Assembly: GCA_036676455.1 (NCBI GenBank) | Contig: JAKFCW010000047.1 | Span: forward strand, 69,203-101,202 | Length of the DNA: 32,000 bases | Direction of reading: 5' to 3' | Origin: Candidatus Sericytochromatia bacterium | Lineage (GTDB): Bacteria > Cyanobacteriota > Sericytochromatia > S15B-MN24 > UBA4093 | Shown here: one piece after another, positions 3,326-28,955 of the stretch | Position numbering within the stretch: position 1 is the first letter of the stretch | Layout: every line of letters begins with the position of its first letter | Made by a program: the position numbers and the translations under genes | The notes under the pieces: generated by a model | What the model was told of the DNA's origin: nothing | Database searches by the model: none | What the model saw: only the letters and a program-made list of their open reading frames with translations

Positions 3326-3337
3326 GGCTAATCCCCG

Positions 3338-4480: not shown

Positions 4481-4818
4481 GATGCCGACGCTCCTTTTGA
4501 CGATTTGGCAGGGGCGGCGTCGATGATCTCGACCTTCAGGTCGGGCCCGTCCCATGAGAAGACGATCTGGCCGGGGCGGTCATGCGTGACCACCACGCGG
4601 CGCACGCTGCGGGGCGCCCCCGCAGGCAACACCTCCTGGCCCGGCAGGGGGGCCGCGACGGCCGGCAGGATCAGGGTCGCGGGATCCATTGCGGAGGAGG
4701 GTGCCGGGGGCTGCTGCTGGGTGGCGTAGAGGGCGCCGGTGGCGAGCAGGCCGCAGCACGCGGCGATCACGATCCGTTGCGGCGTGAGGTTACTGGTGAG
4801 GTTTCGCATGGCACTCAT
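4477..4818 (-). CDS. small membrane-anchored protein of unknown function, first gene of the Tad-like operon
   Basis: 113-aa ORF with GGGAGG upstream. It has one TM segment (IVIAACCGLLATGALY) followed by a Pro/Ala-rich region. It is translationally coupled (ATGA) to the TadZ-like gene. No family was recognised. Confidence 0.55.
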   Translation of the reverse strand: MSAMRNLTSNLTPQRIVIAACCGLLATGALYATQQQPPAPSSAMDPATLILPAVAAPLPGQEVLPAGAPRSVRRVVVTHDRPGQIVFSWDGPDLKVEIIDAAPAKSSKGASAS

Positions 4819-6115: not shown

Positions 6116-6128
6116 CAAAGGAGTCGTC

Positions 6129-10846: not shown

Positions 10847-10855
10847 TTCAACCTC

Positions 10856-12013
10856 CTATCGGAACGACATGCCGATGGTGGCATGGTAGCTCATCCCGCC
10901 GTACGTCATCGAATTCGCATAGCCGCTGCCGGCTGGGGCCAGGCTGACGTCCTGCTGCGGCACGTAGGTGAGCCCGAGGTTCATGAAGAGGTCCGGCGTG
11001 AAGCGGATCAAGAAGCCTCCCTTTGCGGTGGAGGGCTGGCGCAACGCGTCTGCGAGCGAGATCGCGAAGCCCGGCCCTGCGTACAGGTTGACCACGCCGA
11101 GGTTGTCCTTGCCCCCGAAGAGCGGGTCGAGACGCATGAACAGCAAGGGGGAGACGTTGACCAGGCCGTGATAGAGCGAGAAGTCGACGCCGCCGCCCTG
11201 GATGTACTCGGCATCGATACCGACCGCGAGATTCTCCCAGAAGTAGGTGTTGCGGAGCGCCATCACGCCAGCGCTCAGCGAGAGATCCGCATGACGCGCG
11301 GGAACTCCGGCCGTGGACGAGACCCGGTCGGCGGCGAAGCCCGTCACGCCGGAATAAAGGTAGACGCCATTGTCCCGGGTCTTCCGCTCGAGTTCGGCGC
11401 GCTTGGCGGCCTCGGCCTTGCGGGCTTCTTCCTCCGCCTTGGCGCGCATGGCGGCGCCCTGCCGAACGGCGTTGAAGTCGTAGGCATAGCGATGCGTCCA
11501 GACGATCTCGCCATCCGAGGCGCGCACCAGCTTGAGATGAACCATGACCACCTCGTTGGTCACGAAGGGCGCGTACATGAGCACGGCATCCGCCCCGACG
11601 TTTCCGGCCAGATCGCGCAGGCGATCCAGCGACTCGATGGTCGTGCTGACCTGGAGCTCGGTAGGCGTCGAGACGATCTTGCGGACCTTAGACTCGCGCG
11701 ACTCCACCACCTTGAAGCGACGAAGCGGCAGCAAGAGCTCGTGAAGGCGGTTCTCGACGAGGAGATCCAGCTTGTCGGTCTCGGGGCGGCGGCGCTCATT
11801 GAAAAGAAAGATCCGCAATAGCGTGGGATCGATCTTGGTGATCTCCTCGGGAAGCGCCGGGATGATCTGCTCGGCAGCCTGACTGTAGTTCAAGAGATCC
11901 GTGACGAGGGGATGCAGGGCAGGCGGCTCGACCTCGGCCATTGCCGGCGACGCGACGCTAGTCAAGGCGAGCGAAAGCGCGATTCCTCCAGATAGTAGCC
12001 ACTTGGCGCTCAC
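10856..12013 (-). CDS. secreted protein: periplasmic alpha/beta domain, charged coil and C-terminal beta-barrel (putative outer-membrane component)
   Basis: 385-aa ORF with a GTG start and GGAGGAGG upstream. The signal peptide is ALSLALTSVASPAMA-EV. The coil is AAMRAKAEEEARKAEAAKRAELERK. The last ~190 aa show alternating hydrophobicity and are Gly/aromatic-rich, ending in ...YHATIGMSFR. Confidence 0.75.
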   Translation of the reverse strand: MSAKWLLSGGIALSLALTSVASPAMAEVEPPALHPLVTDLLNYSQAAEQIIPALPEEITKIDPTLLRIFLFNERRRPETDKLDLLVENRLHELLLPLRRFKVVESRESKVRKIVSTPTELQVSTTIESLDRLRDLAGNVGADAVLMYAPFVTNEVVMVHLKLVRASDGEIVWTHRYAYDFNAVRQGAAMRAKAEEEARKAEAAKRAELERKTRDNGVYLYSGVTGFAADRVSSTAGVPARHADLSLSAGVMALRNTYFWENLAVGIDAEYIQGGGVDFSLYHGLVNVSPLLFMRLDPLFGGKDNLGVVNLYAGPGFAISLADALRQPSTAKGGFLIRFTPDLFMNLGLTYVPQQDVSLAPAGSGYANSMTYGGMSYHATIGMSFR

Positions 12014-12016
12014 CGA

Positions 12017-12766
12017 TTACCTCCTCCGATTCCGAATCCAGTCAAGCGCTTGCTGCGCGTCCGAGAGCCGTGGGTCCAACTCGAGGGCCCGGACCCACCC
12101 TTCCTCCGCCTGGCGCTCCCGACCAAGCTTGAAGCAAATCGATCCCCGCATGGCATGCAGGTGCGCCACCTGGTCGTCCACGCCCAGCGCGGCATCGACG
12201 ACCTCCAGGGCACTCTGGTAGCGGCCCTGCTGGGCCAGGCGCGGAGCACGGTAGAGCGCGTCGGCGACGATCTGCAGGCGTTCCGAGCCCAGCTCACGCG
12301 ACGCCGGTATCGCCGGAGCCTTGGCAGCGGCCGGCATCGGCAGCTCCGCATTCTTCGGGGTGGGAGTGGGGGAGGCCTGCGCCTGCAACTCCTCTTCCGC
12401 ATACTGCAGCCATTCGTAGGGCACATGGCTGGCGCTGGGGGAAGGCATCGGCTCGGGAAGGGCGCTGGTGGCCGACTCCTTGGCGTCGGTGCTCGAGGCT
12501 TCAGGGGTCGGCGAGGCCGCGGGAATCGCCCCCGGCGCGGGAGATTTGTCCATCTCGATGCGCAGGAAGAAATCAGGTTGATTGGTATCCAAGAGGGAAT
12601 CCACGTCAACCGTTTCCAGCCCGCGCTTCAGGTGGATGACTCCCTCGCGCTGGCCGGAAACCGGCGACGTCAGGCCCTGCTGGATGAGGACGAGGGGAAG
12701 CGTGGCGACGATGGTCAGGCCGTAGGCGATCGCCCAGACGCGCCGACGGTTCGGCAGATTTGCCAT
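12017..12766 (-). CDS. inner-membrane-anchored periplasmic TPR protein
   Basis: 249-aa ORF with GGAGGAAA upstream. The positively charged N-terminus and TM segment are MANLPNRRRVWAIAYGLTIVATLPLVLI. A Pro/Ala/Ser linker leads to C-terminal TPR-like units (RLAQQGRYQSALEVVDAAL, HAMRGSICFKLGRERQAEEGWVRALELDP). Confidence 0.75.
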   Translation of the reverse strand: MANLPNRRRVWAIAYGLTIVATLPLVLIQQGLTSPVSGQREGVIHLKRGLETVDVDSLLDTNQPDFFLRIEMDKSPAPGAIPAASPTPEASSTDAKESATSALPEPMPSPSASHVPYEWLQYAEEELQAQASPTPTPKNAELPMPAAAKAPAIPASRELGSERLQIVADALYRAPRLAQQGRYQSALEVVDAALGVDDQVAHLHAMRGSICFKLGRERQAEEGWVRALELDPRLSDAQQALDWIRNRRR

Positions 12767-12768
12767 GG

Positions 12769-14613
12769 TTAGTTTCCTCCGGCTTGCGGAATCACCAGCA
12801 CGCGGGTGGTCTGGCGAATCCGGCTAAGCAAATCACGGCGCATGGCCTCCCGGGCCTCCGGGTTGGCATCCAGCAGAGACGGGCCCTTGAGGGCCTCCTC
12901 GACGACCATGCGGCCGCGCTCGTTGAGCGCACCAACGAGCGCGTTGAGCACGTCGGCCGGCGCATCGCGCAGCACCTCGGCGAGTTGCTCCTTGGGGAAA
13001 TCGCGGACCGCATCGCGCAGCACGTCCTTGGGGAGCTTCGGCAAGTCGTCGAATGCCACGTAGCTTTGCTTGACCTGCTTGAGCACCTGGGGGTTCTGGG
13101 TCGACAGCTCCTGCATGATGCGCCGCTCCATCTCCCGGTCGGAGTGGTCCAACAGGCCCACCAGCACGCCGATGCCGTTGGTGACGCCCGTCGAGAAGCG
13201 CGGCGCCTCCGACGCCTTGCTTGCAAGGTGAAGCGCGATGTCGTTGAAGGTCTCGAGGGGAATCTCGGAAAGCGCGCCCATGGCTGCGGTGACGGTTCCC
13301 AGCTCCCCGGGACTCAGCAGGTGCATCAGGCCGATCGCCCGCTGGGGAGGCAGCTGGGAGAAGGCCAGCGCCTGGACGCGTGGGGACTCGTCCTGGAGGA
13401 TGTAAATGATTTGCGAGTCGTCGAGCGTCTGAAGAAAGGCGAAAGGCTCGTTACGGCGCGTGCTCGTCCGAGAACCGGCCGTGTGGCGATCGCGCACGAT
13501 GGCGCGAATGGCCTCGCTGAGGGCCTGTTGCAACTCCTCGGCGGGAACGTCGGCACGCTCGAACTGCTTGAGCTCGATCGCCCGCCAGATTTCCTCCGAG
13601 ACGCCTGCGAAGAGGCGACGGCTCACGCCCGCCCCGAGGGTACGGGTCAGCAGCGAGGCCCGCTCCATGCCAAGTTCTTGACCGAGCAGCTGGTGCATGT
13701 AGCGCTCGGCAAGCTCGGGCTCGCTCAGGATCAGCATCGTCAACTCGTGGCGCAGCGGCTCGAGGTTGGGCCCCTGAGGCTCGGCCGGCGTGCTCTTGAG
13801 AGCCGAAGCCGCGTGTGCGGCCTGCGGTGCGAGGGAAGGCGCATCCGGACGACGGCGCGAACGCGTGAGCAGCCACCCCAAGCCCAGTCCGGCGCCGGCA
13901 GCCAGGACGGCCCACGCCCACGGCGGAAGGAGCGGAGAATCAGCCGTGCCGGCGGGAGTCGACGGGAAGTCGCGGCGCGTGATCTCGACGATCAGGTCCC
14001 GGGCGTAGGCATGATCCACCTTCTGGGCGACCATGTTGCGAATGAAGTCCTCATCCTGGCTCGTCAGGGAGGTGGGCAGCACGACAGAAACTTTCAAACG
14101 ATCGATCGACTGGGTTGGAGCCGGATCGTTCGGAGGAGCCACGGGCGCCGGATTCGGCAGATAGGGCATCGCCATGGAGGAAGGCGGCTCGAGCGTCTCA
14201 TCCTCACGCTGTCCCCCGAAGAGGCCCGGAAGGATCGGCGGCTCGTCGGCGCCACGTGTCGACAGAGCCGAGGGCCGCTGCGTCGGAAGCTGGGGCAGCA
14301 TCTGAGGCGCTTGCTGAGGGAGCGGCTGTTGCACGTAAGCGGGCCGCGAGCCGCGCTCTCCGCCCTCCTTGAGGATCGCCTTCACCTGCACGATGAAGCG
14401 GTCGGCGCCGAGGTAGGCGCTCAGGCCACGATCCAGGCTCTCCTCGAGGTAGCGCTCGTAGCTCAGCACTCCCAGCTCAGACTCCGATCGGGGAACTTCC
14501 GGCGGATTGAGCTGCGCGCTGGCGGCCATGGGAACGAGGGTCCCCGCCAGCAGCGCTCCAATAATGACGGCTTTTCGATTCTTCAACGGTACGCAACCTC
14601 GCAATTGGTTCAA
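12769..14613 (-). CDS. membrane protein: FliF-like periplasmic segments fused to a FliG-like cytoplasmic region (N, middle and C-terminal parts)
   Basis: 614-aa ORF. The start is uncertain: TTG at 14613 or TTG at 14586. There are two TM segments. FliF-like patterns are YERYLEESLDRGLSAYLGADRFIVQVKA and IDRLKVSVVLPT...ARDLIVEITRRDF, the second lying directly before TM2. FliG-like stretches are FLQTLDDSQIIYILQDESPRVQALAFSQLPPQRAIGLM and VAFDDLPKLPKDVLRDAVRDFPKEQLAEVLRDAPADVLNALVGALNERGRMVVEEAL. Confidence 0.8.
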   Translation of the reverse strand: MNQLRGCVPLKNRKAVIIGALLAGTLVPMAASAQLNPPEVPRSESELGVLSYERYLEESLDRGLSAYLGADRFIVQVKAILKEGGERGSRPAYVQQPLPQQAPQMLPQLPTQRPSALSTRGADEPPILPGLFGGQREDETLEPPSSMAMPYLPNPAPVAPPNDPAPTQSIDRLKVSVVLPTSLTSQDEDFIRNMVAQKVDHAYARDLIVEITRRDFPSTPAGTADSPLLPPWAWAVLAAGAGLGLGWLLTRSRRRPDAPSLAPQAAHAASALKSTPAEPQGPNLEPLRHELTMLILSEPELAERYMHQLLGQELGMERASLLTRTLGAGVSRRLFAGVSEEIWRAIELKQFERADVPAEELQQALSEAIRAIVRDRHTAGSRTSTRRNEPFAFLQTLDDSQIIYILQDESPRVQALAFSQLPPQRAIGLMHLLSPGELGTVTAAMGALSEIPLETFNDIALHLASKASEAPRFSTGVTNGIGVLVGLLDHSDREMERRIMQELSTQNPQVLKQVKQSYVAFDDLPKLPKDVLRDAVRDFPKEQLAEVLRDAPADVLNALVGALNERGRMVVEEALKGPSLLDANPEAREAMRRDLLSRIRQTTRVLVIPQAGGN

Positions 14614-14677
14614 CTCTTTCCCCAGGATAGCGCTCGGCGCGCGATTCAGCGGTGACCCTCGTCATAGCCGGGTGCGG

Positions 14678-14687
14678 TATGATAACA
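14678..14687. promoter_or_regulatory. candidate overlapping divergent -10 elements
   Basis: The plus strand reads TATGAT (14678-14683), upstream of GGAGG (14699-14703) and the ATG at 14712. The minus strand reads TGTTATCAT (14687-14679), an extended -10 type element upstream of the 614-aa gene. No convincing -35 was found on either strand. Confidence 0.2.
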
Positions 14688-14711
14688 CCAGATAGTTCGG
14701 AGGCCATTCTC

Positions 14712-15227
14712 ATGCTTGTCACTCGCCCCCTCTGGGGACTTATCTGCGGTACGCTCTTGCTGAGCGGATTCAACTCTCCGGCCTGGGCCCAGGCGGCTCG
14801 GAACGCTGAGCGATCCCCCATCGAGTTCCGTCTTCACCACCCCGAGGCCACGGCATCGACGGACGTGGATATCTGGGCGCCGGCCGATCCCCGCGTGCTT
14901 CACGACACCCAGCAGGATCTCGCGGCCATCCAGCAGTCGGTCTCGCCGTCCCGAGACTCGCGCCCATCCTTCACCGACGCGCTCCTCACGGGGATGGCCA
15001 CGCTCCCGGTCATCGGCCAGTTCGCCAACCACGACTGGATGAAGGGCCTCGTCACCTTGGGCACCGCCGCCGGCCTCACGACCGCCATCGTGATCGGCAA
15101 CGACCGGAACGACCCGCAGCTCGTGCGGCTGGGAACCCTGGGCCTCTACCCCCTGGCGGTTTTCGGAACCGTGGACGCCCTCGTCACCCGCCAGAAACGG
15201 GAAGCCAAGCCTTCGGTTCACCCATAA
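14712..15227 (+). CDS. secreted or membrane protein of unknown function
   Basis: I chose the internal ATG at 14712, which has GGAGG 8 nt upstream. The signal peptide is MLVTRPLWGLICGTLLLSGFNSPAWA-QA. Two hydrophobic segments lie near the C-terminus (LLTGMATLPVIGQF, GLVTLGTAAGLTTAIVIG). Confidence 0.6.
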   Translation: MLVTRPLWGLICGTLLLSGFNSPAWAQAARNAERSPIEFRLHHPEATASTDVDIWAPADPRVLHDTQQDLAAIQQSVSPSRDSRPSFTDALLTGMATLPVIGQFANHDWMKGLVTLGTAAGLTTAIVIGNDRNDPQLVRLGTLGLYPLAVFGTVDALVTRQKREAKPSVHP

Positions 15228-15242
15228 ACCACCGGTCACGAC

Positions 15243-16001
15243 TTAGATCTTCACCTGGGTCAGCACTGCCTCCGCACGCAACCCTGCGACCGTGAACTGG
15301 GCCTTGACGAGCCCCACCCCGGGAGCGAACCAGGCCTCGGTCGGTTCGCCATGGTCCTCGACGTAAAGCACCTTCCAGCACCCGGGAAACGTCGCCACCT
15401 CCGTCTCGACGCGTTCCAATCCGATCAGACGCGCCTTTCCGTTGATTGACGGCCAGTACATGCCCGGCGTCGCACGTTGCGGCATCATGGGCTTGCCGTC
15501 GACCTGGATCCAATCCTCGTCAACGCGGGCCTTCCATGCTTGATTCCCCGAAAGCCACCCCACCGTGAAGCGCGATTCCACCTCCAGCTCGAAACCCTGG
15601 TTCTTCGGCTCAAACCTCTGCACTGTCAGCTCCATGCGGCCTTGGGGAAACCAGCCATCGATAGCACTTAGGCGGTAATTCAAGACCGTGTTCGCACTGA
15701 AAACCATGGGCCCCTGGACGAACGTCCGTTGCACGGCCTCCGACGTCCCCCCTGCAGCCCCCTCTCCGGGAGTCGAGGGTTCTGCAACGGGAGCGTCTTT
15801 GGCTCGGTCGCTGGTGGCCCCGTCTTCTTTCCGCTTTTCCGGCTTGTCTGCCAGGGGATCAACACTCCATTCCGCCGGAGGCTGAAGCATCGTTCCCGTC
15901 TCCTGCCATTCGGCAGGCAAGCCTACACCCGAACTTGGGCATCCTGCGAGGGGCCAAGCGATCAGAAAGGCGATGGCAAACCGCGCGACCGTCCAATTCA
16001 T
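15243..16001 (-). CDS. lipoprotein of unknown function, last gene of the lipoprotein array
   Basis: 252-aa ORF with an ATGA overlap with the upstream gene. The lipobox is AWPLAGC. A low-complexity linker leads to a beta-rich domain ending in EAWFAPGVGLVKAQFTVAGLRAEAVLTQVKI. Confidence 0.75.
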   Translation of the reverse strand: MNWTVARFAIAFLIAWPLAGCPSSGVGLPAEWQETGTMLQPPAEWSVDPLADKPEKRKEDGATSDRAKDAPVAEPSTPGEGAAGGTSEAVQRTFVQGPMVFSANTVLNYRLSAIDGWFPQGRMELTVQRFEPKNQGFELEVESRFTVGWLSGNQAWKARVDEDWIQVDGKPMMPQRATPGMYWPSINGKARLIGLERVETEVATFPGCWKVLYVEDHGEPTEAWFAPGVGLVKAQFTVAGLRAEAVLTQVKI

Positions 16002-17164
16002 GGGGTGGATTGGCCATCCGTTGGCACGATGAAAGGAATCAGGGCTGTGCGCCCAAACGCGTTCGCGCCACCATACGACCCGGATCCCTCCCAGTACTTG
16101 AGCACGTAGTAACGAGTCCCCGGATGGACCGTTTCGTCGAGCGTGAACGAGACCCGGGTCGTCATGGTCTCGGGGTCATGGGCCGAAGTCTCGTAACGCT
16201 GCAAGGGGACCAGACTCGAATTCGACTCCCTGACCGCGGAATCATAGATCTCGATGGCGTACTTCGGATCCGTCAGCCCGGTCTTGGCCGGAAACTCGAA
16301 AGTCACCTCCCGGGACTCCAGCACCGAATTCATCGCGGGAGTGGCTGCCGAGAGATCCCAACTCAAATCGAATTCGACCTCCGGGACCTCCGTTTGCGTC
16401 GCCGAAACCTGGACGGGCTCGGAGATGGCAAACTGGGGTCGGCGAGGCATGGCCGTGGCCACTGAGATCGTGCCCTCGAAGCCGGAATAGCCGGAGTAAG
16501 TGGGATACGAGCTGTGGTATCCCAGGTGGTAGGCCCCATCGCTCAGGTTGAAAAAGTTTGCGGCCCCCGCCGGGGTCACCTGGGTCGATCCGTAACTGTA
16601 AAAGTAGAACGGCGTGACACCCTCGCGCCGGAACACGCCCATCGAGAGCTGCTCACCAGTGGCTTCTCCGCCGATCACGCGACCGTAAAGCTGACTGCCC
16701 AGGACGTTTTGATCCACCAATGGAGTCAAAGGGCTGTATGGCATCACCGTGCTCTTGCCGGGGGTGTCGAGCAGGATGTGAAGCGAGGCGTAGCTGCGCC
16801 GTCCAGGCATGAGCATGGCCATGGTGTAGCCGTACCCAACGACCTCTCCGGATGCGAGCATGGCGCTGACCTTGATCGAGGCTTCCCCGGAAGGCAACCC
16901 TGAGAGGTCGATATAGTTGCTCTCAGCTTTCGGCAGGGTGCGCGTCTCCGTCCGACCATCCTCGAGCGTCAACTCGACTTTCAACTCGGCAAGATCCTCG
17001 GCGATGACCTGAGCCTTCCTCCCGAAGTCGACGCTCATGCGCAACGATGCGCCCTGGTGCTGGGACGAAACCAATGAAGGCATGGCTGCCGGGGCGCAGC
17101 CAGTTAGCCAAAGCGATGCCGCCACTGCGAGGGCGAAGGCCCGGGACGTGTGGTTTATCGTCAT
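15998..17164 (-). CDS. lipoprotein of unknown function
   Basis: This is the 399-aa ORF in the track. I prefer the start at 17164 (MTINHTSRAFALAVAASLWLTGC, lipobox LTGC). Alternative starts are at 17173 and 17197. The N-terminal beta module is ASLRMSVDFGRKAQVIAEDLAELKVELTLEDG. Confidence 0.75.
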   Translation of the reverse strand: MTINHTSRAFALAVAASLWLTGCAPAAMPSLVSSQHQGASLRMSVDFGRKAQVIAEDLAELKVELTLEDGRTETRTLPKAESNYIDLSGLPSGEASIKVSAMLASGEVVGYGYTMAMLMPGRRSYASLHILLDTPGKSTVMPYSPLTPLVDQNVLGSQLYGRVIGGEATGEQLSMGVFRREGVTPFYFYSYGSTQVTPAGAANFFNLSDGAYHLGYHSSYPTYSGYSGFEGTISVATAMPRRPQFAISEPVQVSATQTEVPEVEFDLSWDLSAATPAMNSVLESREVTFEFPAKTGLTDPKYAIEIYDSAVRESNSSLVPLQRYETSAHDPETMTTRVSFTLDETVHPGTRYYVLKYWEGSGSYGGANAFGRTALIPFIVPTDGQSTP

Positions 17165-17165
17165 G

Positions 17166-18074
17166 TCAATCATTCGCGACCACCCCTCCCCCTTCAAATA
17201 CGACCCCTTCCCGCATCAACGTCGAAACCACTCCGTTCTCGTCGCTGATGACTTCCTTGAGAAGGCCTTCCGATGCCCCGTACCAGCGATCCACGGTCAC
17301 CTCTGTCCATGTCTGCGCGTCGCCGGGATACTGGTTTGTCCAGCGATAATGGCGGACCTTGGTGCTCGGCGCTAGCAACTCGGAGTCCACGTAAACCGCG
17401 TGAGTCGGGATGGCGGTCCAGGAATCCGTCGGGTAAGATTCCGACACTCCTGCTCCAATTCGACGATAAACCGTCGAATACTGCACCTGAAAGGTCACCG
17501 CGACCCGCTGGGAGTCACGCGTAAGCCAGAAGAGCAATTGCTGCTGGTTCGGATAATACGCGGCAAAATCCGAATCGAATCCGTCTGCATGGCTCAGACG
17601 GCGGTAATCAAGCAGGCGTTGCCCAAAGCTGACACCAAGATCGAGTGCCGGCTTACCCCCGTGGAGTAGGCTGAAACTGACAGGTGTCTCCTCGCCCGGC
17701 AAGAGGACGACGGCCATTTGCTGCCTATCGTGCATCGCGTGGGTCTCGGCGTCGCGCGCCGTCACGGTTACCGTGACGGGACCGGGCACGAGATTCGCGA
17801 TTACAGTCGGTTCGTCGAGTTGAAGGACCCGGGGTTCAACCACGACATTGCGATACTCCCAGCCCGAGTACGCAACTTCGAGGAGCACCTCGATGCCTGC
17901 GGTGCTCTGGAGCTGGCGAGGCACAGAGACAATCGCTCTCATGCGACTCGTCTCGGCACTGGCGATCTCGGTCGCAGGTTGCAGAGTCGTCCCCGTCGTG
18001 GTCACGCCCTCGCAGCCCAGAAGGAACATGGTGGGCAGGGCCAAGAGCAGACCCCATCGATTCATCTTGCGCAT
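17166..18074 (-). CDS. lipoprotein of unknown function
   Basis: This is the 316-aa ORF in the track. I prefer the start at 18074 (MRKMNRWGLLLALPTMFLLGC, lipobox LLGC), 4 nt after the upstream stop. The beta module is RMRAIVSVPRQLQSTAGIEVLLEVAYSG. Confidence 0.75.
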   Translation of the reverse strand: MRKMNRWGLLLALPTMFLLGCEGVTTTGTTLQPATEIASAETSRMRAIVSVPRQLQSTAGIEVLLEVAYSGWEYRNVVVEPRVLQLDEPTVIANLVPGPVTVTVTARDAETHAMHDRQQMAVVLLPGEETPVSFSLLHGGKPALDLGVSFGQRLLDYRRLSHADGFDSDFAAYYPNQQQLLFWLTRDSQRVAVTFQVQYSTVYRRIGAGVSESYPTDSWTAIPTHAVYVDSELLAPSTKVRHYRWTNQYPGDAQTWTEVTVDRWYGASEGLLKEVISDENGVVSTLMREGVVFEGGGVVAND

Positions 18075-18078
18075 TACC

Positions 18079-19566
18079 CTACCCTTCCTCGGACGGTGCG
18101 GCCGGCGTGAAGTCAATCAACTCGTAGGTGGTCACCTGGCGCTGGCGAGGGAGGGGGTCCCGTTTGCCTTCGTGGGAATAGTGGTATCCACCGACGCGAG
18201 TCTCCACGGAGCGCACGACGCCCACGCCCTCGACCAGCCAAACCTCACGGGTGACTCCGGATTCGGGGCTGGTGAAATAGTGCTTCGCCAGTCGTTGACC
18301 GAGGGCCGGAACGTTGAGCGTCACCTCAGGCAAGGTCTGGATGCCGTTAGTGGAACTCAAGCGAAAGATCGGACTCAGCTCGGAAGCGGACCCGTTCGCC
18401 AAGTCGAACGCCCGCAAGGTCGAGTAGCTGTAGGACTCATATTGCCCGCGCCCGTCGTCATCGAGCATCTCCACCCGCATCGTGCGGCTCCAGGACGACG
18501 TGCCCCCTCCCTGAGACTGCGGATAAGTGTAAGTTGTGCTCACAAGGTAGTTCCAGCGCGTACCGGCGGCCAGGGGGAGTGCCTCGAAAGGCGGCTTCCA
18601 AAGGTCCTGCCCCACCCAGCGAGTGGGGTTCTGGGGTGGGGCATCCGGAACCTCGATGAGTTCCACGTCTAGCGAGGCGGTGGCCTGCGTGGGCATCGAG
18701 AAGTCGATACTACGTGACGTGACGCCGTCCACCATGACCATGAACTTCGGCTGGAGCTTGTCGGGCTTGGTGAAGTAATCGGCAAAACCGGAGAGCAGGT
18801 CATGGGGGACCGTCAGGGTGAGTTGCGTGTCGGAATCGACGGTGACGGCGGTTTCCGGAAGCGACCTGCGCATCATTCCAAACCCTCCTGATGGCACTGG
18901 CATCGGGAAGATGAGGTTTGAATAAGGCAGGTACTGGTAATTCAGCCCCACGTAAGCCAGGGTTTTCCAGTTCTTGGACTTGCCAAAGCCAGAGCCGGCG
19001 ACGATGATCCGGTCTCCAACCCGCCAGTCGCTCTTGGACAGCGAGGTGATCACCGGCGCGTCAACGGCCACGAGCTCCATGCCGACCGTCGCGAAGAGGC
19101 CAGGCACGACGTCGATGCGCTTCTCGTCCGAAGCCACGACCTGATTCTGAGCGTCACGAACTTCTGCCTGAATGAGCAGATCCGCCTGGACCGGAAGGTC
19201 CCATCTCAAGGAACCGTAAGTGTTGAACCCGGCGGGGTAAGGGCCGTAGTAATAGGGATCCGCCTGGCGGTAGATCTCCACGGGGGCGATCGCCTTTCCC
19301 GACGAATCAATCGCCTGCGATCCATCCGCGCGCGTCAGCGTAACGACCGCCTTGATCGCCCGGTTGGGAATCGCCTGGAGGGAGGAACCGGAATCCGGCC
19401 AGCGAATGCCCAGCCCCAGGCCGCCGACTCCAGCCTGTGTGTGCGCCTCCGTTTGCCCCGTGCCGATCGCATTCGAGGTCCACTGAGTGCCAACAGGAAC
19501 CGTGCAACCCAACAGGGCTGAAACGAGGCCGAAGGCGATCCACGTCTTGAAATCTCGCTGTCTCAT
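18079..19566 (-). CDS. lipoprotein with an IPT/TIG-like Ig domain
   Basis: This is the 504-aa ORF in the track. I prefer the start at 19566 (MRQRDFKTWIAFGLVSALLGC). The N-terminal module is GLGIRWPDSGSSLQAIPNRAIKAVVTLTRADG. The IPT/TIG-like stretch is PVITSLSKSDWRVGDRIIVAGSGFGKS. The C-terminal module is EVWLVEGVGVVRSVETRVGG. Confidence 0.8.
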   Translation of the reverse strand: MRQRDFKTWIAFGLVSALLGCTVPVGTQWTSNAIGTGQTEAHTQAGVGGLGLGIRWPDSGSSLQAIPNRAIKAVVTLTRADGSQAIDSSGKAIAPVEIYRQADPYYYGPYPAGFNTYGSLRWDLPVQADLLIQAEVRDAQNQVVASDEKRIDVVPGLFATVGMELVAVDAPVITSLSKSDWRVGDRIIVAGSGFGKSKNWKTLAYVGLNYQYLPYSNLIFPMPVPSGGFGMMRRSLPETAVTVDSDTQLTLTVPHDLLSGFADYFTKPDKLQPKFMVMVDGVTSRSIDFSMPTQATASLDVELIEVPDAPPQNPTRWVGQDLWKPPFEALPLAAGTRWNYLVSTTYTYPQSQGGGTSSWSRTMRVEMLDDDGRGQYESYSYSTLRAFDLANGSASELSPIFRLSSTNGIQTLPEVTLNVPALGQRLAKHYFTSPESGVTREVWLVEGVGVVRSVETRVGGYHYSHEGKRDPLPRQRQVTTYELIDFTPAAPSEEG

Positions 19567-19576
19567 GCTTCGTCCC

Positions 19577-21301
19577 CTAGTAGATGTAGACATTCAAGCC
19601 ACCACTGGTCCTGTTCGTGAAGAGGCCAGGAGTCAGGTGGATGCGGGTTCCAGGCGTACCGCCCGCGCCGTCCATCAGGACCAGGTAGGGCCACGTCTCG
19701 TTCTTGGAAACATTCAGGCCGCCCCGTTCATCGAAGGGAGCGTCGTAATCGATCCGTCCGATCACGGTCCTGCTGGGGATGTCAACGAAGCGTGCCTCGA
19801 CGACGAGTCGCAGCGGCTCGGAATCCAGCGTCACCGTTCCTTCGAGGCGAAGATTCTCCATTTCGTCATCGAGCACGAAACTCAGGACGCCTCCCGTGAT
19901 CATCGAGCGCTCGCCCACCTTCTCGATCCGCACCGAGGCGTCGGCTTTGGCGAGGAATACCGAGCGAACTCCCGCCTTGTCGCGAGGCGCGAGGCGAAGC
20001 GTGACGCTTCCGCTCGTGAAATCGGGATTCAAAGCAGCGGACAACGCAGCATGTAACGAAGGGAATTCCAGGCTTGCCTCACCCTTGGTGGGAAAGCGGG
20101 TCAATGAATTTACTGCGACGCCATAATAAGCGTATGGGAAGTAAACGTACCCGTTCGGATTGGCGTCCCGAATCGCGGCGAGCAGCGGGGACGTCGCTGT
20201 TTCCCTAACCTCATTGAGTTCTAGGGCCGCCTTGAAGCGACTCGCCACCTGCCCCTGCGGAACGATTTCACCGCTGAGACGCAGCGCGCTGATGGTTTCA
20301 GGAACCGGGCGTTCCCCTCCAAAAAGGTCGAAGGCCCGAGCGCCCGTGGTTTCCGATTGCGGATTGACGCCCGCAAACGAGCCCCGCAGTTGTGGCTCTG
20401 CCACCCAGGAGGATGTCACATCCGCCGACAGGGTCGCCCTGGTCTGATCACCACTCGGGGAACTCGGATTCAAGGCGAGATCGAGGCGTCGCTGCAAGGG
20501 GCCAGACGTGAAGGCCTGGGAAATCTGATAGCCAGGCCAGAATGCTTTGAGGATCGCGCGATCGCGCAGCTCCAGGCCAAGTATGGATTGGCCCGGCAGG
20601 TGCCAGGTCTCAACTGTACCAGGGGCGCCCTCGATGAGCGTGCCGTTCGCGCCAAGGCTCATGGCATGGAAGAGGTGTTGGCCGTTCGAATTAAACGAAT
20701 CCACCACCTGGCGAACGGCAGCTTCCATGGTCAGCACCTCGGGGAAAGTCCGAGGGTTCACCCAGTTATCGAAACGATCGGCGTAATGATAGAGGTCTTT
20801 CAGGAGGGTGATCTGACGAGAGATCCGGATCGTCAGTGAGGCCTCGTTGTCCAGGGTGATGACGACGCCCGTCGACGTGTTGTCACGAATCGGCACGTCC
20901 GCTTGCCCGCCTTGGGCTAGGATCTTGCCGCCCCCCCGGACAACGACCTCCACGTTCACCGTTTCGTGAGCGGGCGAGATCTGGAAAGAAAAGGTGGAGA
21001 CAGGCGATTCCCCGGCAGGGCGATCGATCGTCTTGCTGACCAGGAGCTGATTGGACTTCGAACGGACCGAGACTTCGATGGTTTCGGCTTCGAGCGGAAT
21101 GGCCTGGGTCGCGAGGGGACGCGCGGGCCACTGGATGCGCATGACCAGGTTGCCTTGGTGGGCAGGTTGCTCCATGGCGTCCAGCCCCGCGTCCCCGGAG
21201 GAAACCTTGGGCGTGTCGGCGACGTTGGGCACTCCCACCGTACAACCCACGAGTCCGATGGCGACGACGAGGCCCCAGCGGGCGATGACTTTCGACTTCA
21301 C
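19577..21301 (-). CDS. lipoprotein of unknown function
   Basis: 574-aa ORF with a GTG start and GAGG upstream. The lipobox is AIGLVGC. The N-terminal module is NLVMRIQWPARPLATQAIPLEAETIEVSVRSKS, which resembles that of the downstream paralogue. Confidence 0.8.
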   Translation of the reverse strand: MKSKVIARWGLVVAIGLVGCTVGVPNVADTPKVSSGDAGLDAMEQPAHQGNLVMRIQWPARPLATQAIPLEAETIEVSVRSKSNQLLVSKTIDRPAGESPVSTFSFQISPAHETVNVEVVVRGGGKILAQGGQADVPIRDNTSTGVVITLDNEASLTIRISRQITLLKDLYHYADRFDNWVNPRTFPEVLTMEAAVRQVVDSFNSNGQHLFHAMSLGANGTLIEGAPGTVETWHLPGQSILGLELRDRAILKAFWPGYQISQAFTSGPLQRRLDLALNPSSPSGDQTRATLSADVTSSWVAEPQLRGSFAGVNPQSETTGARAFDLFGGERPVPETISALRLSGEIVPQGQVASRFKAALELNEVRETATSPLLAAIRDANPNGYVYFPYAYYGVAVNSLTRFPTKGEASLEFPSLHAALSAALNPDFTSGSVTLRLAPRDKAGVRSVFLAKADASVRIEKVGERSMITGGVLSFVLDDEMENLRLEGTVTLDSEPLRLVVEARFVDIPSRTVIGRIDYDAPFDERGGLNVSKNETWPYLVLMDGAGGTPGTRIHLTPGLFTNRTSGGLNVYIY

Positions 21302-21315
21302 GGCTGTTACCTCGG

Positions 21316-22863
21316 CTACTTGACGTCGATCGCGATCGCCGCGTCCCGGCGAACCGGAATCGGGATCTCGAGCGTGATGGGAGGCTGGGTCTTGGTCGAG
21401 AGCTCCACGCTGGCGGTTCCTTCCGCGCTACCGGGTTTGACGCTCACTCGTCCCCAGGCGTCAACCAGGACCATGTGGGGAGTCCCGCTCCGCCATTCCA
21501 ATAGGCTGGCATCCTCGGGAGAGTGGGTGATCGCCCGATCGTTCCACGTCAGCTCCCAGGCGAGTTGCAAGTCGGTCGGATGGCCCAAGTTATTGTCACC
21601 GAGCGAGGAACCATCGGCGGGAACGTAGAGGGCCGGCGTCTGCGAGGGGACCTTCAACTTACCCGAGAGGATGCGGCGCGGAGTCTCGACGATGCGCATG
21701 GTCAGATCGGCGTACTTGTCGGCATTCGCGAGCGCGGTGGCTCGGATCGTGACGTCTCCGGGGGCCGCTCCGGAGAGCAGGCTGATACGGCCACCCTCGA
21801 GGGAGACTTTGCCGGCCTGGGCCCCGGAGACGATCGACCAATCGGCTATCGGCAGCTCGGTGCCGTCCGTGAGCACCGTGAGTGCCCGGACGAGGTGCGT
21901 CTGGGGGTAGGCGGGATCGGTCGCGCCGTTATCGAAGGGAAGGTAGACCTTTTCGGGTGCCGGAAGCAGTTCGAAACGCTGGATGGTGGTCGGGGGCTTG
22001 GAAACCACAGGGGCCACCACGGGCGGAGCCGGTGGAGTGGCAGGCGGATTGGCGGAGGGAACACCGCCCTCCTCCAGGCTATTCGTGGGATCGACGCTGC
22101 CTTGCGCTTCGGAGAGGGCATCGATGGGATCGGGCAAGGCAGCCAGAGCGGGATCCAGTTGCTTGACGAGCGACAAGGCCTGCATGGCCTTGCCCACCGC
22201 CTCGGGATCGGTGGTGTCGGTGTCCATGACCACCGCGGTGAAGGCCTCGGGCTTGGCCTTGAGCACCTCGAGCGTGCTCTTCACGGCCGCCTGGACCTTT
22301 GCCATGTCGAGGGTCGGCAGCGAGGCCTGGTCACGGCCCTTGGTGATGGACTCGGCGACCAGGGTGCTGGCGAAATCAAGAGGTTGAGTCGGAGGATTGG
22401 CCTTGTCCTTCTCGGTGACCTTGGCGAACGTACGGAACGTGCGGGGCACTCCCGCGGGGTCCTTGAAGGCGGCGACGATCGTGTAGACCTTGTTGATGTC
22501 CAGGCGCAGGATCACGCGTCCAGTGGCATCGGTGGTGCCGATGACCGTGAGGCCGCCAGTGGTGGGAATCGCCCGAACCTCGGCTCCAGGAACCGGGGTG
22601 TCGAAGGAAATGGCCGGATCGCTGAGCACGTGGAAGCCCGCAATCCGGAAAGCCGAGACCGACTTCAAGGCGGGAGCGAGAACCTGAATCGGAGTATCGA
22701 GCTTGAAGGCATCGGTCGGAACCGGCGCCGCCGGCCCCGCAGGCACGAGTTGGTGCCCGGGACACGCGCTCAAAAGCGCGCTCACCGTTCCGAGGCTGGC
22801 GACAAGCAGTCCGGCTCTCACGAGGCGGGCGAGCGGTCGCGAGGAGAAAGATGAGTTGAACAT
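21316..22863 (-). CDS. lipoprotein with an N-terminal beta-sandwich and two Big_2-like Ig domains, first gene of the array
   Basis: This is the 530-aa ORF in the track. I prefer the start at 22863 (MFNSSFSSRPLARLVRAGLLVASLGTVSALLSAC). A carboxypeptidase-regulatory-like stretch is VRAIPTTGGLTVIGTTDATGRVILRLD. Big_2-like stretches are VSLEGGRISLLSGAAPGDVTIRATALAN and VLVDAWGRVSVKPGSAEGTASVEL. Confidence 0.8.
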   Translation of the reverse strand: MFNSSFSSRPLARLVRAGLLVASLGTVSALLSACPGHQLVPAGPAAPVPTDAFKLDTPIQVLAPALKSVSAFRIAGFHVLSDPAISFDTPVPGAEVRAIPTTGGLTVIGTTDATGRVILRLDINKVYTIVAAFKDPAGVPRTFRTFAKVTEKDKANPPTQPLDFASTLVAESITKGRDQASLPTLDMAKVQAAVKSTLEVLKAKPEAFTAVVMDTDTTDPEAVGKAMQALSLVKQLDPALAALPDPIDALSEAQGSVDPTNSLEEGGVPSANPPATPPAPPVVAPVVSKPPTTIQRFELLPAPEKVYLPFDNGATDPAYPQTHLVRALTVLTDGTELPIADWSIVSGAQAGKVSLEGGRISLLSGAAPGDVTIRATALANADKYADLTMRIVETPRRILSGKLKVPSQTPALYVPADGSSLGDNNLGHPTDLQLAWELTWNDRAITHSPEDASLLEWRSGTPHMVLVDAWGRVSVKPGSAEGTASVELSTKTQPPITLEIPIPVRRDAAIAIDVK

Positions 22864-22916: not shown

Positions 22917-22945
22917 AGCATAACGCATTGGAAATGACCGATCAA
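22917..22945 (-). promoter_or_regulatory. candidate sigma70-type promoter for the lipoprotein array
   Basis: On the minus strand: TTGATC (22945-22940), a 17-nt spacer, then TATGCT (22922-22917). It lies in the relatively A/T-rich 233-nt gap upstream of the start at 22863. Confidence 0.3.
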
Positions 22946-23096: not shown

Positions 23097-24389
23097 TTAG
23101 AACTTGAAGGTGTTGGAGAGCGTGTAAGAGGCGCCCCGGGCGTTGCCGCCCACGCCATTGAGGGCCGCCATGGCAAAGTCCAGGCGGAAGAGGGGCATGT
23201 CCAGCCCCAGGCCGGTGGCGAACGTCAGGCCACGATCTCCCCCCAGGGCGATACCCCCGCGGACCGGGAGCCAGTCGAGCAGGCGCAGCTCGGAGCCGAC
23301 CCGCAGTTCCGGCGTGCGCGAAACGCCGAAGCCATCGCCGTAGCCGAGTTGCAGCTCGCCGCTCAGCGTGAACGGATCCCAGGGCTTGAAGGCCGCTGCG
23401 AGGCGCAGGTAGGGCGGTAGGACGATCTCCGAGGGGCCTTCCTGAGTCCGGGATTCCTTGAGGGCATCGCGGGTGACGGCCCCGAAGTCGGTCACGGAGC
23501 CCGAGGCGTCCACGACCGAGAAAGGCTCCACCTTGAGGGTGTAGGTGGTGACGTCGCGCCGGCTCCAGCTCATGACCCCGACGTTGCCAAGGATGGCGCC
23601 CCAGCGCAGGCGATCGCCCACCCTCCCGGCAGCTCCGAAGTCGGCCGCGATGCCGTTCCCACCCGTGGCCCATTCGGTCGATAGCCGCGCGTCGGCCGAG
23701 TACCGGCCGGACTCATCAACGGCCAGCAGCGTCCCGCGGGCCTCGCGGACACGGCCGTAGGCCAGTCCCCGCAGGTAACGCAGGTTCATGCCCAGGCTCG
23801 ATGTCTCACCCATCGGAAAGGCGAACGAGGAGCCGAGAGAGGCGACTGCCGTCGCCGTTGCCCCGCCCAGCGCATCGATCCCGACGTTGGGGACGGAGGC
23901 GTTGCCGTTGAGCGCAAGGGCGATCAGGTCCCGAGGCAGATCGAGCCCCTTGGTGTCCGCCACCGCATCCAGGAAGACGCCCGTTCGCGCGCTCGGCATG
24001 GACAGGGCCATCGAGGTGCCTCCGTCGAACAGGAAGCGCCATCCGGTCGGCGGCAAGGCCTCGAGCACACCGGCGACGTTGGTGGGCTCGATCGCCTGGG
24101 TCGAGATCAAGCCGGCAAGCTCGCCGAAGGACAAGACGTTGTTCCCGAGGGCCAGGTTCAGGTTGGGCAGCAGCGTGAGCGAGAGGCGATCGCGACGCGA
24201 CTCGAGCCCCAGCAGGGCCGGGTTCACGATCATGGCGTCGGCGTCCATGGCGATCGCCGCGTTGGCCCCGGCCATACCCGCACTCCGGGCGTTGCCATAG
24301 GCGTACGCAGGGAGCGCGGGAGCAAGGCTCGTCAGCATGGCGGAGATAGCGGCCAGGGTGCCGCGCGACCGGAAACGGGAAAGGCTCAC
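23097..24389 (-). CDS. outer-membrane beta-barrel protein, FadL/PorV-like
   Basis: 430-aa ORF. The GTG start forms a GTGA overlap with the upstream gene. The signal peptide ends in ALPAYA-YG. The N-terminal motif is NARSAGMAGANAAIAMDADAMIVNPALLG. Gly/aromatic-rich alternating strands run throughout. The C-terminus is ...YTLSNTFKF. Confidence 0.8.
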   Translation of the reverse strand: MSLSRFRSRGTLAAISAMLTSLAPALPAYAYGNARSAGMAGANAAIAMDADAMIVNPALLGLESRRDRLSLTLLPNLNLALGNNVLSFGELAGLISTQAIEPTNVAGVLEALPPTGWRFLFDGGTSMALSMPSARTGVFLDAVADTKGLDLPRDLIALALNGNASVPNVGIDALGGATATAVASLGSSFAFPMGETSSLGMNLRYLRGLAYGRVREARGTLLAVDESGRYSADARLSTEWATGGNGIAADFGAAGRVGDRLRWGAILGNVGVMSWSRRDVTTYTLKVEPFSVVDASGSVTDFGAVTRDALKESRTQEGPSEIVLPPYLRLAAAFKPWDPFTLSGELQLGYGDGFGVSRTPELRVGSELRLLDWLPVRGGIALGGDRGLTFATGLGLDMPLFRLDFAMAALNGVGGNARGASYTLSNTFKF

Positions 24390-26500
24390 TTCGACTCCTG
24401 CCTGGAGGAGACGTTGGCCTTGAACTCGACGGCCAGATTCACCCGGAAGCCGGATCCCCGGAACAAGGTCACGGGAACCGACGAGCCCGGCGAGCGCACC
24501 CGTAGGCCGAGCTTGGAGGCCTTTCGGAAGCGATCCAATGCCTCTCCCTCGAGCGTCAGGTGATTGGTCACACGGTAGCCTGCCGCCTGGTTGCCCAGTG
24601 AAAGCGTCTGAACGAAGGCCTCGGAATCCGTGAACGGATCACTCGAGGTGGAAAAGAGCAGATCGAGATCGAGCGGAATGCTCCAGCCGTTGTCGATGGT
24701 CAGCTTGAGCACGGCACGCTCCACCCGGTTCAGCATGTCTCGATTCTCCGACGTGAAGCTCAACGCCGTCGGCGGACGAACGTCGATGGCCGGCTTCGGC
24801 GCGCTTCCCCCGAAGGGTTCGAGCGTGAACGAGAGCGGAATCTCGACGCCGAGGCGGCCTTCCAGGACGTCGGACGCCGAGAGACGAACGGGCTGTCCCT
24901 TGGAGTCGATCACGACCTTGCCGCCGACGCTCAGGGAGGTGGGCTTGGCGTTGAGAAGGTCGAGCAAGTTGGAGTTCTGGGCGTTGACCTGCAGCTCATT
25001 GACCTGATTGCCCGCGATCGGCAGGCGCAAGGGCTGGCCGCTCTTGTCCCGCAAGGGCACATCCCCCGTTCCGGGAATGCTGGCCCTGACGTCCAGGTCG
25101 AGGGTGCCAGCGAGGGCGCTCGCGTTCTGAAGCTCCAGGCGCAGGACGACGTCCTGGAGGTTGATGCCCTGATTGGAAATCAGGTCAGGAAGCTGGATGG
25201 GCATGGAGGAGGCCGGGAGGGCGATCTCGCGGGTCACAGGAACTTCGATCGCCCGGAATCGGAGCGGGGCCCGGAGGAGGACCCGTCCCGACATGGACGG
25301 CGAGCCGTCCATGGCCAAGAGGGCGCCGGAGGGCCCGGTATCCTTGGTGGTGGCGCGCGCCGTCACCGCGATCTGGCCGTTCTCGGGGCGGATGGTGACG
25401 CCGGTGAGCGGAACCTCGATGGTTCGGGACTCGCCTGCCTTCAGCTCGTAGACGGCGGTCATCGGGGCGGTTTGACCGGGCCGGAAAAAGTGCGAGAAGC
25501 CCAGGTCCAGGGTAGCCGCAACCGGGAAGCCGTTTCGCAGCGTGAGCTCCAGGGTGCCCTCCTCGACCTCGAGGCTGCGGACGGTTTCGGTCGCGTACGC
25601 CGGGTCGTCGAGCCCGAAGTCGAGCGTCTGAGAGGGGATCTGGATGGATTTGGTGGCGATCTCGACGCGAAGGTGGCTGATGGTCTTGGTCACGAGCACG
25701 ACGTTCGAGAGCGTCACATGGGAGACCGGGGCCTGCGCCAGTTGCCCGCCAGGAATGAAGACGTCGATCTTCAGCGAGAGATCGGGCGTGAGGGTCGCCC
25801 CGGCCTGCAGCGGAACGGTCAATCTGCGGGACTGCCCCGGGTCGAGGGGAACCGCGGCCTGGGTACGTCCCACTTCCCGGGTGGCTCCGCCCTGGGTGGC
25901 GTAAAGCTTCACCGTCGGTGAGAAGCGGACCCCCAGCTGATTCTCCACCGTGAACTCCAGATGCCCCGACGGCGTCCCGACCCGAGCCTCGGTGAAGTTG
26001 GACTCTCCGGCGGGAACCGCGAGCTTCTGATCGACCGTGTAGGTCAAGTTGAAGGGAACGGGCACCCCGGGGGAAAGTCCCCCTCCCACGATCGTGTCCG
26101 CGCGCAAGGGGAGATCGGGGAACTGGATGTCCGGCAGTGAGGCGTCGACGCCGGGAAGTGACTGCTGGGGCAAATCGATCGCCAAGGGGTCGTTCAGCGT
26201 GAGGTTCTCGGCGAACCGGATGGGCTCGAGTTCCTGTGAAGCCGGCATGAGGTGAAGCCGCTCGTCGTTGCCGGGCTGGACCGCGAGGTCTCCGAAGAGG
26301 GATCGCGCCACCCCGGGGTCATCCAGGGAGAGGGAGAGCGAGCCCAGGGGCAAGGCGATATCCACGGGCCATGCGTACTGGATCCCCTCGGAATTGGAAG
26401 CCGTCGACAGCTTCTGCAAGGGGCTCAGAAGTTCAAGCCCACAGCCTGCGAGGAGCATGGTGATCAGTAAGACGCCAAAGCGCGGTATCATGGCCTTCAT
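24386..26500 (-). CDS. large beta-rich lipoprotein of unknown function, coupled to the barrel gene
   Basis: This is the 726-aa ORF in the track. I prefer the start at 26500 (MKAMIPRFGVLLITMLLAGC, lipobox LLAGC). The composition is beta-sandwich-like throughout. No known catalytic motif was recognised. Confidence 0.75.
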   Translation of the reverse strand: MKAMIPRFGVLLITMLLAGCGLELLSPLQKLSTASNSEGIQYAWPVDIALPLGSLSLSLDDPGVARSLFGDLAVQPGNDERLHLMPASQELEPIRFAENLTLNDPLAIDLPQQSLPGVDASLPDIQFPDLPLRADTIVGGGLSPGVPVPFNLTYTVDQKLAVPAGESNFTEARVGTPSGHLEFTVENQLGVRFSPTVKLYATQGGATREVGRTQAAVPLDPGQSRRLTVPLQAGATLTPDLSLKIDVFIPGGQLAQAPVSHVTLSNVVLVTKTISHLRVEIATKSIQIPSQTLDFGLDDPAYATETVRSLEVEEGTLELTLRNGFPVAATLDLGFSHFFRPGQTAPMTAVYELKAGESRTIEVPLTGVTIRPENGQIAVTARATTKDTGPSGALLAMDGSPSMSGRVLLRAPLRFRAIEVPVTREIALPASSMPIQLPDLISNQGINLQDVVLRLELQNASALAGTLDLDVRASIPGTGDVPLRDKSGQPLRLPIAGNQVNELQVNAQNSNLLDLLNAKPTSLSVGGKVVIDSKGQPVRLSASDVLEGRLGVEIPLSFTLEPFGGSAPKPAIDVRPPTALSFTSENRDMLNRVERAVLKLTIDNGWSIPLDLDLLFSTSSDPFTDSEAFVQTLSLGNQAAGYRVTNHLTLEGEALDRFRKASKLGLRVRSPGSSVPVTLFRGSGFRVNLAVEFKANVSSRQESK

Positions 26501-26611
26501 GCGCGGGAAATCTCCGACGTGAACCTGGGGACGGCCTCGGCCGCGTGGGAGCATCATACCAAACAAGCATGTTTTCTAATCTGTGATGAAAGGCAGGAAG
26601 CCGTGGAAGAG

Positions 26612-28954: not shown

Positions 28955-28955
28955 G

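Follow-up and report, generated by a model that had tools for sequence, protein, structure and literature searches.

Is a row of six lipoprotein genes that stands directly beside a FliG/MotAB motor-like operon a part of that machine or a unit of its own? The question is raised by positions 15243-22863 of a 32,000-nucleotide stretch of contig JAKFCW010000047.1 from a Candidatus Sericytochromatia bacterium; the whole stretch is called the window (W) below. Sericytochromatia are the non-photosynthetic sister group of cyanobacteria and to our knowledge their cell surface is essentially unstudied. In the literature that we searched, neither the six-lipoprotein cassette nor a function for DUF3108 nor a Sericytochromatia FliG/MotAB module is described. 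A sequence-only reading had taken the array for six related lipoproteins that serve the neighbouring machine as its structural part or its adhesin. The comparisons presented here indicate that it is a real and coherent accessory operon of six lipoproteins, whose families are new, restricted to the lineage and composed of common beta folds. The fuller reading, which we consider probable though with some reserve, is that the six genes (F-E-D-C-B-A) code for envelope lipoproteins and form a self-contained operon, probably transcribed as one, that is an optional cassette in Candidatus Sericytochromatia. It is based on direct observation of the gene structure, the lipoprotein signals, the paralogy of domains, the conserved gene order and a patchy distribution.

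Gene structure and lipoprotein signals

The six genes lie consecutively on the minus strand. With the best-supported start codons, gene F (21316-22863) codes for a lipoprotein of 515 amino acids (lipobox LSAC, Cys34), E (19577-21301) for one of 574 (LVGC, Cys20), D (18079-19566) for one of 495 (LLGC, Cys21), C (17166-18074) for one of 302 (LLGC, Cys21), B (15998-17164) for one of 388 (LTGC, Cys23; an alternative ATG at 17173 would give 391) and A (15243-16001) for one of 252 (LAGC, Cys21). The start of A was placed at 16001, and not at the shorter gene-caller start, because the lipobox is conserved in its orthologues. F, E, D, C and B are separated by 14, 10, 4 and 1 nucleotides and the start of A overlaps the stop of B by 4 nucleotides, the same consecutive arrangement and spacing that had been described from the open reading frames (ORFs).

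A promoter-like element was found 5' of F on the minus strand (22917-22945; TTGATC, 17 nucleotides, TATGCT), followed by a strong Shine-Dalgarno sequence (AGGAGA) located before the F ATG at 22863. Both hexamers, their 17-nucleotide spacing and the Shine-Dalgarno are conserved upstream of the F orthologues in two related loci (L011 and L019). The element scored 8/12 in a consensus scan that requires 9/12 and its promoter function is putative. No convincing internal expression signals were found within the array. The tight spacing, this lack of internal signals and the conserved promoter-like element and Shine-Dalgarno upstream of F indicate that the six genes are very probably co-transcribed, in agreement with the earlier proposal.

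All six proteins start with a positively charged n-region and a hydrophobic h-region ending in a lipobox, and all of them match the pattern [LVI][ASTVI][GAS]C after the signal peptide. The residue at +2 after the Cys is P, T, T, E, A and P (in F, E, D, C, B and A, respectively), in no case Asp. A lipobox is present in every orthologue whose N-terminus is on its contig (up to nine other loci), a few of them having non-canonical residues at -3 (e.g. GSGC or ATGC). Thus, the signal peptides and lipoboxes without Asp at +2 that had been read from the six sequences are found in all of them, and the orthologues keep the lipoboxes. Since lipoproteins are infrequent in genomes, we judge that six of them in a row cannot plausibly be a chance run.

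Relatedness of the six proteins

A single-sequence all-against-all BLASTP comparison of the six proteins was nearly blank, with D and E as the only matching pair (E = 0.007). Such a comparison would wrongly refute paralogy and orthologue profiles were therefore needed. Orthologues of all six families were taken from related contigs and mature-protein profiles, with 9-10 sequences per family, were compared by hhalign. In these comparisons a shared N-terminal domain appeared between E and D (P = 7e-10), C and B (P = 2e-7), D and B (P = 3e-5), D and C (P = 7e-5), E and B (P = 6e-4) and E and C (P = 0.011), while control comparisons of N-terminal against C-terminal domains gave P values of 0.07-0.9. 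Furthermore, the hidden Markov models of the D and E families hit the orthologues of each other. The domain spans about residues 47-164 of E (20810-21163) and 44-166 of D (19069-19437), in both cases after the tether, 38-145 of C (17640-17963) and 34-137 of B (16754-17065), and AlphaFold2 (AF2) modelled it as a beta-sandwich in both D and E. The N-terminal module that had been proposed for these four ORFs is therefore real by orthologue profiles. A and F are devoid of it (best P 0.05-0.7 in the profile comparisons) and F has no detectable relation to any of the other five families (best P 0.05). To speak of six related lipoproteins was thus an overstatement: B, C, D and E do share the N-terminal domain, F is unrelated and A is without this module. 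The 343-amino acid protein encoded further along the locus (G343, 7391-8422), also proposed as a relative, had no detectable relation by profiles. One match between G343 and C (P = 0.0095) was rejected, as it disappeared when the merged N-domain profile was used (P = 0.22).

A second shared module had been proposed at the C-terminus of A, D and C. Here D and A matched with a P of 0.0026 (2e-4 with a broader profile) and C and A with a P of 0.0014-0.004, all within spans of 24-58 columns. In a joint alignment the three C-termini contain a collinear [KR]H[YF] strand followed by W..G.G.[VL]K. What stands of the proposal are these collinear motifs and the weak D-A and C-A relations; the direct comparison of D with C was not significant (P 0.07-0.4). 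In C the domain is encoded at 17169-17642 of the minus strand (motif ...VRHYRW...DRWY..EGLLKE), in D it corresponds to a DUF3108-like beta domain at residues 318-490 (18097-18615), and in A to a DUF3108-like domain at residues 88-252 (15246-15740) that comes after a disordered-looking, Pro/Ala/Glu-rich linker of about 65 amino acids.

The likeness of this C-terminal domain to DUF3108 and DUF3108_like (PF11306 and PF21347) appears to be a resemblance and not membership. Among the aligned C-terminal domains, 5/19 matched DUF3108_like and 2/19 DUF3108, with a best E of 9.6e-4 and every match of the cassette below the curated cut-off; A itself gave 13.2 bits against DUF3108_like, for which the cut-off is 27. 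In the PDB, the domain matched the "putative lipoprotein" 4fvs over most of its length (E = 0.0012) and 3fzx with an E of 1. On the side of the resemblance are these repeated model matches and a terminal "...W..PGVG.VK" hairpin common to the C-termini of A, C and D and to two proteins encoded outside the window, P0052 (227 amino acids) and P0053 (262 amino acids). Both are stand-alone small lipoproteins that consist solely of the DUF3108-like domain, from a "P..G..W.Y" start to a "W...GVG.VKE" end, which shows that the domain also occurs by itself, independently of the cassette. A search of 1.84 billion representatives with a profile of the C-terminal domain of D retrieved 22 proteins, of which about ten are D-like. 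Large multi-repeat proteins in this search matched only the 30-residue "W..GVG.VK" hairpin, and we treated them as motif-level matches because they carry unrelated domains.

Domain make-up and comparison with known surface lipoproteins

Pfam and NCBIfam scans of the six full proteins and of their isolated domains gave nothing above the cut-offs. No enzymatic family was matched in any of the six, in keeping with the absence of enzymatic motifs noted before, and the AF2 models of D and E are rich in beta-sandwiches, as had also been suggested. The earlier calls of Big_2 and IPT/TIG-like stretches fell below the Pfam cut-offs. In F, a CarboxypepD_reg-like beta-sandwich (residues 88-132, 22468-22602; 19.6 against PF13620, cut-off 32.3, with a match below cut-off in 6/7 orthologues) is followed by a middle part of helical appearance by eye, a linker rich in Pro and two C-terminal Ig-like regions, one of which contains the Big_2-like stretch (residues 450-492, 21388-21516; 18.9 against PF02368, cut-off 22.8, matched in 2/7 orthologues). 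In D, the IPT/TIG-like stretch (residues 172-290, 18697-19053) was modelled by AF2 as a beta-sandwich and scored 12.9 bits against PF01833 (cut-off 20.9), the distant orthologue P0039 reaching 19.1 bits.

The AF2 model of D contains three beta domains, with a predicted local distance difference test (pLDDT) score of 66 overall and of 70-92 inside the domains. The model of E has a pLDDT of 43, is confident for residues 50-160 only, and gave nothing other than generic beta-sandwich, C2-like and Ig-like matches in the fold search. The approximately 400 amino acids of E after the N-terminal domain had no sequence matches in the family scans or in the PDB profile search, and the equivalent 250 or so of B had no family matches. 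PDB profile searches with the E and B families produced nothing or spurious matches to ubiquitin constructs. The C-terminal part of B is the fastest diverging of all; its orthologue in L017 aligns over the first 150 amino acids only.

The make-up of D brings in one alternative, namely that the six are ligand- or glycan-capturing lipoproteins comparable to SusE/SusF and SGBP-B of Bacteroides, in which an Ig-like stalk would hold a distal binding domain off the membrane. The SGBP-B structure 5e7g, the IPT/TIG lipoprotein BACOVA_02650, was the best PDB sequence match of the D family, a weak one (E = 0.041). Foldseek searches of the PDB with the D model listed tandem-Ig proteins, 5e7g (E = 3e-5) and 7k44 (also SGBP-B) among them, together with LolA3 and the C-terminal domains of CGTases. 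The general plan is also similar: a lipid anchor and flexible tether, then Ig-like or IPT/TIG domains in tandem, and a beta domain at the distal end, encoded in clusters of several lipoprotein genes. However, matches of this kind are common to tandem beta-sandwich proteins in general, and scores as good as those of SGBP-B were obtained for complement C3b and the insulin receptor. Neither a SusC/SusD-type transporter, a TonB-dependent receptor nor a glycoside hydrolase was present among the scanned genes of the window or in the other contexts of the cassette, and no carbohydrate-binding module family was matched. The cassette differs also in its conserved order of six genes, in having families outside Pfam/NCBIfam and in belonging to a different phylum. 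Altogether we find glycan capture an improbable explanation.

A further alternative is a type V pilus-like fimbria, with precursors that would be exported, trimmed by proteolysis and polymerised by strand exchange like FimA-E and Mfa1-5. The fim and mfa operons of Bacteroidota, with five to six beta-sandwich lipoprotein precursors, resemble the cassette in outline. Yet no FimA, Mfa or fimbrillin family of Pfam was matched at E values up to 10 for isolated domains and 0.1 for full-length proteins, no type V pilin was found in the top 50 Foldseek PDB matches of D, and there is no invariant Arg or Lys cleavage site before the first strand of the shared N-terminal domain. The domain make-up is, in addition, strongly different between the six proteins. 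This explanation we consider hardly credible.

Distribution of the cassette

The families of the cassette have extremely few members: among 5.8 billion clusters we found 8 homologues of D and 6 of E, and all 8 D homologues were in Sericytochromatia-type contigs. The order F-E-D-C-B was kept in L011, L016, L019, L017, L021 and L023, with A present wherever the contig extends that far, and both the order and the lipoboxes persist down to about 30% identity. The site that the cassette occupies in the window, between a DUF5723 barrel gene and the FliG operon, is the same in L011/L022, L019 and L016, and a metagenome scan added a single locus, equivalent to L011. More distant cassettes, at about 30-40% identity, were found in L017, where A is inverted and still adjacent, and in L021, L023, L024 and L025. 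In L025 (1-7742) the order is C, B and inverted A, then F, E and D, which suggests two copies of the cassette in tandem.

In L013, L015 and L005 the cassette is absent at the site of the window and the pair of lipoprotein and barrel genes, the small gene S171 and the whole FliG-Mot operon are kept. In L013 the stops of the barrel gene and of S171 are no more than 72 bp apart, and no cassette remnants were detectable at the locus in any of the three. Absent means here absent at the locus. The cassette is also missing from the 21-kb FliG loci L006, L009 and L010. In a neighbour-joining tree of FliG, the 385-amino acid protein, MotA and MotB, L013 is the sister of the window (86% identity), and on this tree of core proteins the cassette must have been lost or gained independently two or more times. 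The position beside FliG/MotAB is specific to the lineage of the window, and the cassette has probably been lost there repeatedly.

The six genes have a G+C content at third codon positions (GC3) of 0.70-0.80, compared with 0.81-0.90 for most of the flanking genes. An origin from a mobile element was considered and is unsupported: the lower GC3 alone points that way, no flanking direct or inverted repeats of 8 nucleotides or more were found, and no integrase or transposase families were present among the window genes scanned.

Away from the FliG locus, a gene for a DUF4332 (HHH-type) protein with a lipobox recurs as upstream neighbour of the cassette (L017, 197-724; L021, 5634-6173), with 63% identity between the two loci.

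Relation to the FliG/MotAB motor-like module

Following the minus strand of the window from high to low coordinates, genes for Tad-type secretion (CpaF/TadB/TadC), a 726-amino acid lipoprotein (L726) and the DUF5723 outer-membrane barrel precede the array. S171 comes next on the opposite strand, and then the operon coding for an apparently membrane-anchored protein with FliG_M and FliG_C domains, a TPR protein, the 385-amino acid protein (I385), MotA, MotB, a 256-amino acid protein (H256) and the lipoprotein G343. Part of this is well conserved. The FliG-TPR-I385-MotA-MotB module (9291-14613, minus strand) was seen also in L005, L006, L009, L010, L013 and L015, its core from FliG to MotB being kept down to 52-54% identity (L006, L009). 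The barrel gene, within 23097-26566 of the minus strand, always adjoins the module, and L010 and L008 also keep barrel plus FliG. The FliG-like protein has an N-terminal extension of about 375 amino acids unlike canonical FliG; by eye, this extension begins like a signal peptide and contains a stretch rich in Pro and a single hydrophobic span. I385 gave a weak FlgO match and MotB carries the plug and OmpA domains. No FliM/N, export-gate, rod or hook genes were found near the module.

Could the cassette be an optional accessory of this module, and of FliH/FliI, its proteins forming a scaffold or adhesin in the periplasm or at the outer membrane and docking onto the barrel, L726 and the rotor/stator module? 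Its counterparts would then be the disks and rings that certain lineages add to their flagellar motors. The accessory scaffolds known from flagella are each confined to a lineage and in many cases made of lipoproteins, and those formed by FlgP/FlgT/FlgO and PflA/PflB resemble the cassette in being non-enzymatic, lineage-restricted envelope proteins, some of them lipoproteins, encoded near motor genes. The identical site is kept in the window, L011/L022, L019 and L016, with core proteins 77-86% identical among W, L011/L022 and L016. In a metagenome-assembled genome (MAG), LC003 (GCA_036676985.1), the cassette of L023 (contig JAKFBU010000004.1) stands 35 bp from convergent fliI and fliH genes (13458-16175, minus strand), coding for a 449-amino acid ATPase of the T3SS/flagellar type (ATP-synt_ab plus T3SS_ATPase_C) and a 455-amino acid FliH. 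The F family, moreover, gave a weak FlgA match as its only one in the PDB profile search (E = 0.019). On the other hand, none of the six families has detectable homology to L726, I385, H256, G343 or S171, nor to the flagellar scaffolds, the weak FlgO match being that of I385, outside the cassette. The cassette has a promoter-like element of its own and is missing from L013, the sister of the window, and from L015 and L005 with their motor module intact. In LC003 the cassette and the FliG/Mot locus (L006) are on separate contigs, 4 and 41, respectively; in L017 and L021 it follows the DUF4332 gene and no motor genes are present on these contigs. A role as motor accessory is in our opinion rather unlikely; we keep it in view because the site is stably occupied across several lineages and because of the fliI/fliH adjacency in LC003.

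The link to the motor that had been read from the window is accordingly not supported, as the array is absent beside an intact FliG/MotAB in some relatives and unlinked in others. Co-occurrence with the mot operon had been named as a check on that link, and an array missing or unlinked in genomes with the operon as its refutation; over the related loci the array was found unlinked in LC003, L017, L021 and L025. The probable repeated loss beside FliG/MotAB and the different positions in other lineages indicate that the cassette is accessory and not a core motor component. There may still be a looser association with flagellar-type genes, since the cassette adjoins fliH/fliI in LC003.

Several points weigh against the self-contained operon that we prefer. 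The cassette adjoins flagellar-type genes in two independent arrangements, FliG/MotAB in the clade of the window and fliH/fliI in LC003, which is more than expected for an entirely unrelated cassette. Genomes without it at the site of the window could have it elsewhere. H256 and G343 of the Mot operon diverge at the same pace as the cassette, and therefore the cassette cannot be told from the motor by its rate of divergence. Judged from profiles and motifs, the C-terminal module has borderline support, and of the AF2 models of D and E only that of D is usable. Finally, lipidation, location at the outer membrane, formation of a complex and a binding or scaffold role are what we infer from the observations.

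Proposed assembly and its significance

For the self-contained operon the following picture may be drawn. Each protein would be exported by Sec and lipidated at the lipobox Cys, with a flexible tether holding it on a membrane, the outer one being the most likely. At their N-termini B, C, D and E have a paralogous Ig-like "stalk" domain, the C-termini of A, C and D appear to be a small beta domain similar to DUF3108 or LolA, and F is a separate multi-Ig protein. The six might assemble into one hetero-oligomeric and non-enzymatic scaffold or binding complex on the envelope. The conserved gene order, the tight coupling, the lipoboxes conserved down to about 30% identity and the lack of any catalytic signature all point to a single multi-subunit complex of this kind. 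If the six proteins do form one complex, it would be a previously undescribed envelope assembly specific to Sericytochromatia. The on/off distribution between close relatives provides a natural experiment for its role. For the present the practical value of the result is mainly negative, in that the cassette should not be counted in the neighbouring FliG/MotAB module. The module of FliG fusion, MotAB and barrel is the more conserved feature of the locus and probably the more interesting one.

A bolder picture can be drawn from the same genes. The cassette might be an outer module that plugs into a rotary, non-flagellar machine of the envelope, composed of the FliG fusion, MotAB, the TPR and 385-amino acid proteins and the DUF5723 barrel, and perhaps fed by FliH/FliI. 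The lipoproteins would be a motor-driven surface adhesin or track, gained or lost to switch the mode of motility or attachment. We give this speculation little chance of being right.

Other genes of the window

The window has a G+C content of about 65%, and its proteins are identical to those on the Logan contigs L001-L004. The named relatives of the FliG-like protein are Candidatus Sericytochromatia MAGs, with the exception of MAGs labelled Stenomitos and Pantanalinema. S171 (14652-15227, plus strand), of about 171 amino acids from the gene-caller start, has an apparent signal peptide and C-terminal hydrophobic segments and no family match in our scans. It is always located between the barrel (or the cassette) and the FliG gene in the window, L011, L013, L015 and L016, and after the cassette in L019.

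Tad/Flp-pilus-type genes flank the locus on both sides, always on the minus strand: a CpaE/ParA-like ATPase and a T2SSF-like protein at 2630-4555 and, at 27980-31444, CpaF (T2SSE) and two TadB/TadC (T2SSF) genes. Flanks of the same type recur in L013 and L015. Directly beyond the end of the Mot operon there is an NHL-repeat beta-propeller gene on the opposite strand (5955-7304, plus strand), with a probable second copy at about 5006-6115 (plus strand), and this pair of NHL-repeat genes is conserved at the equivalent position in L011, L013 and L015.

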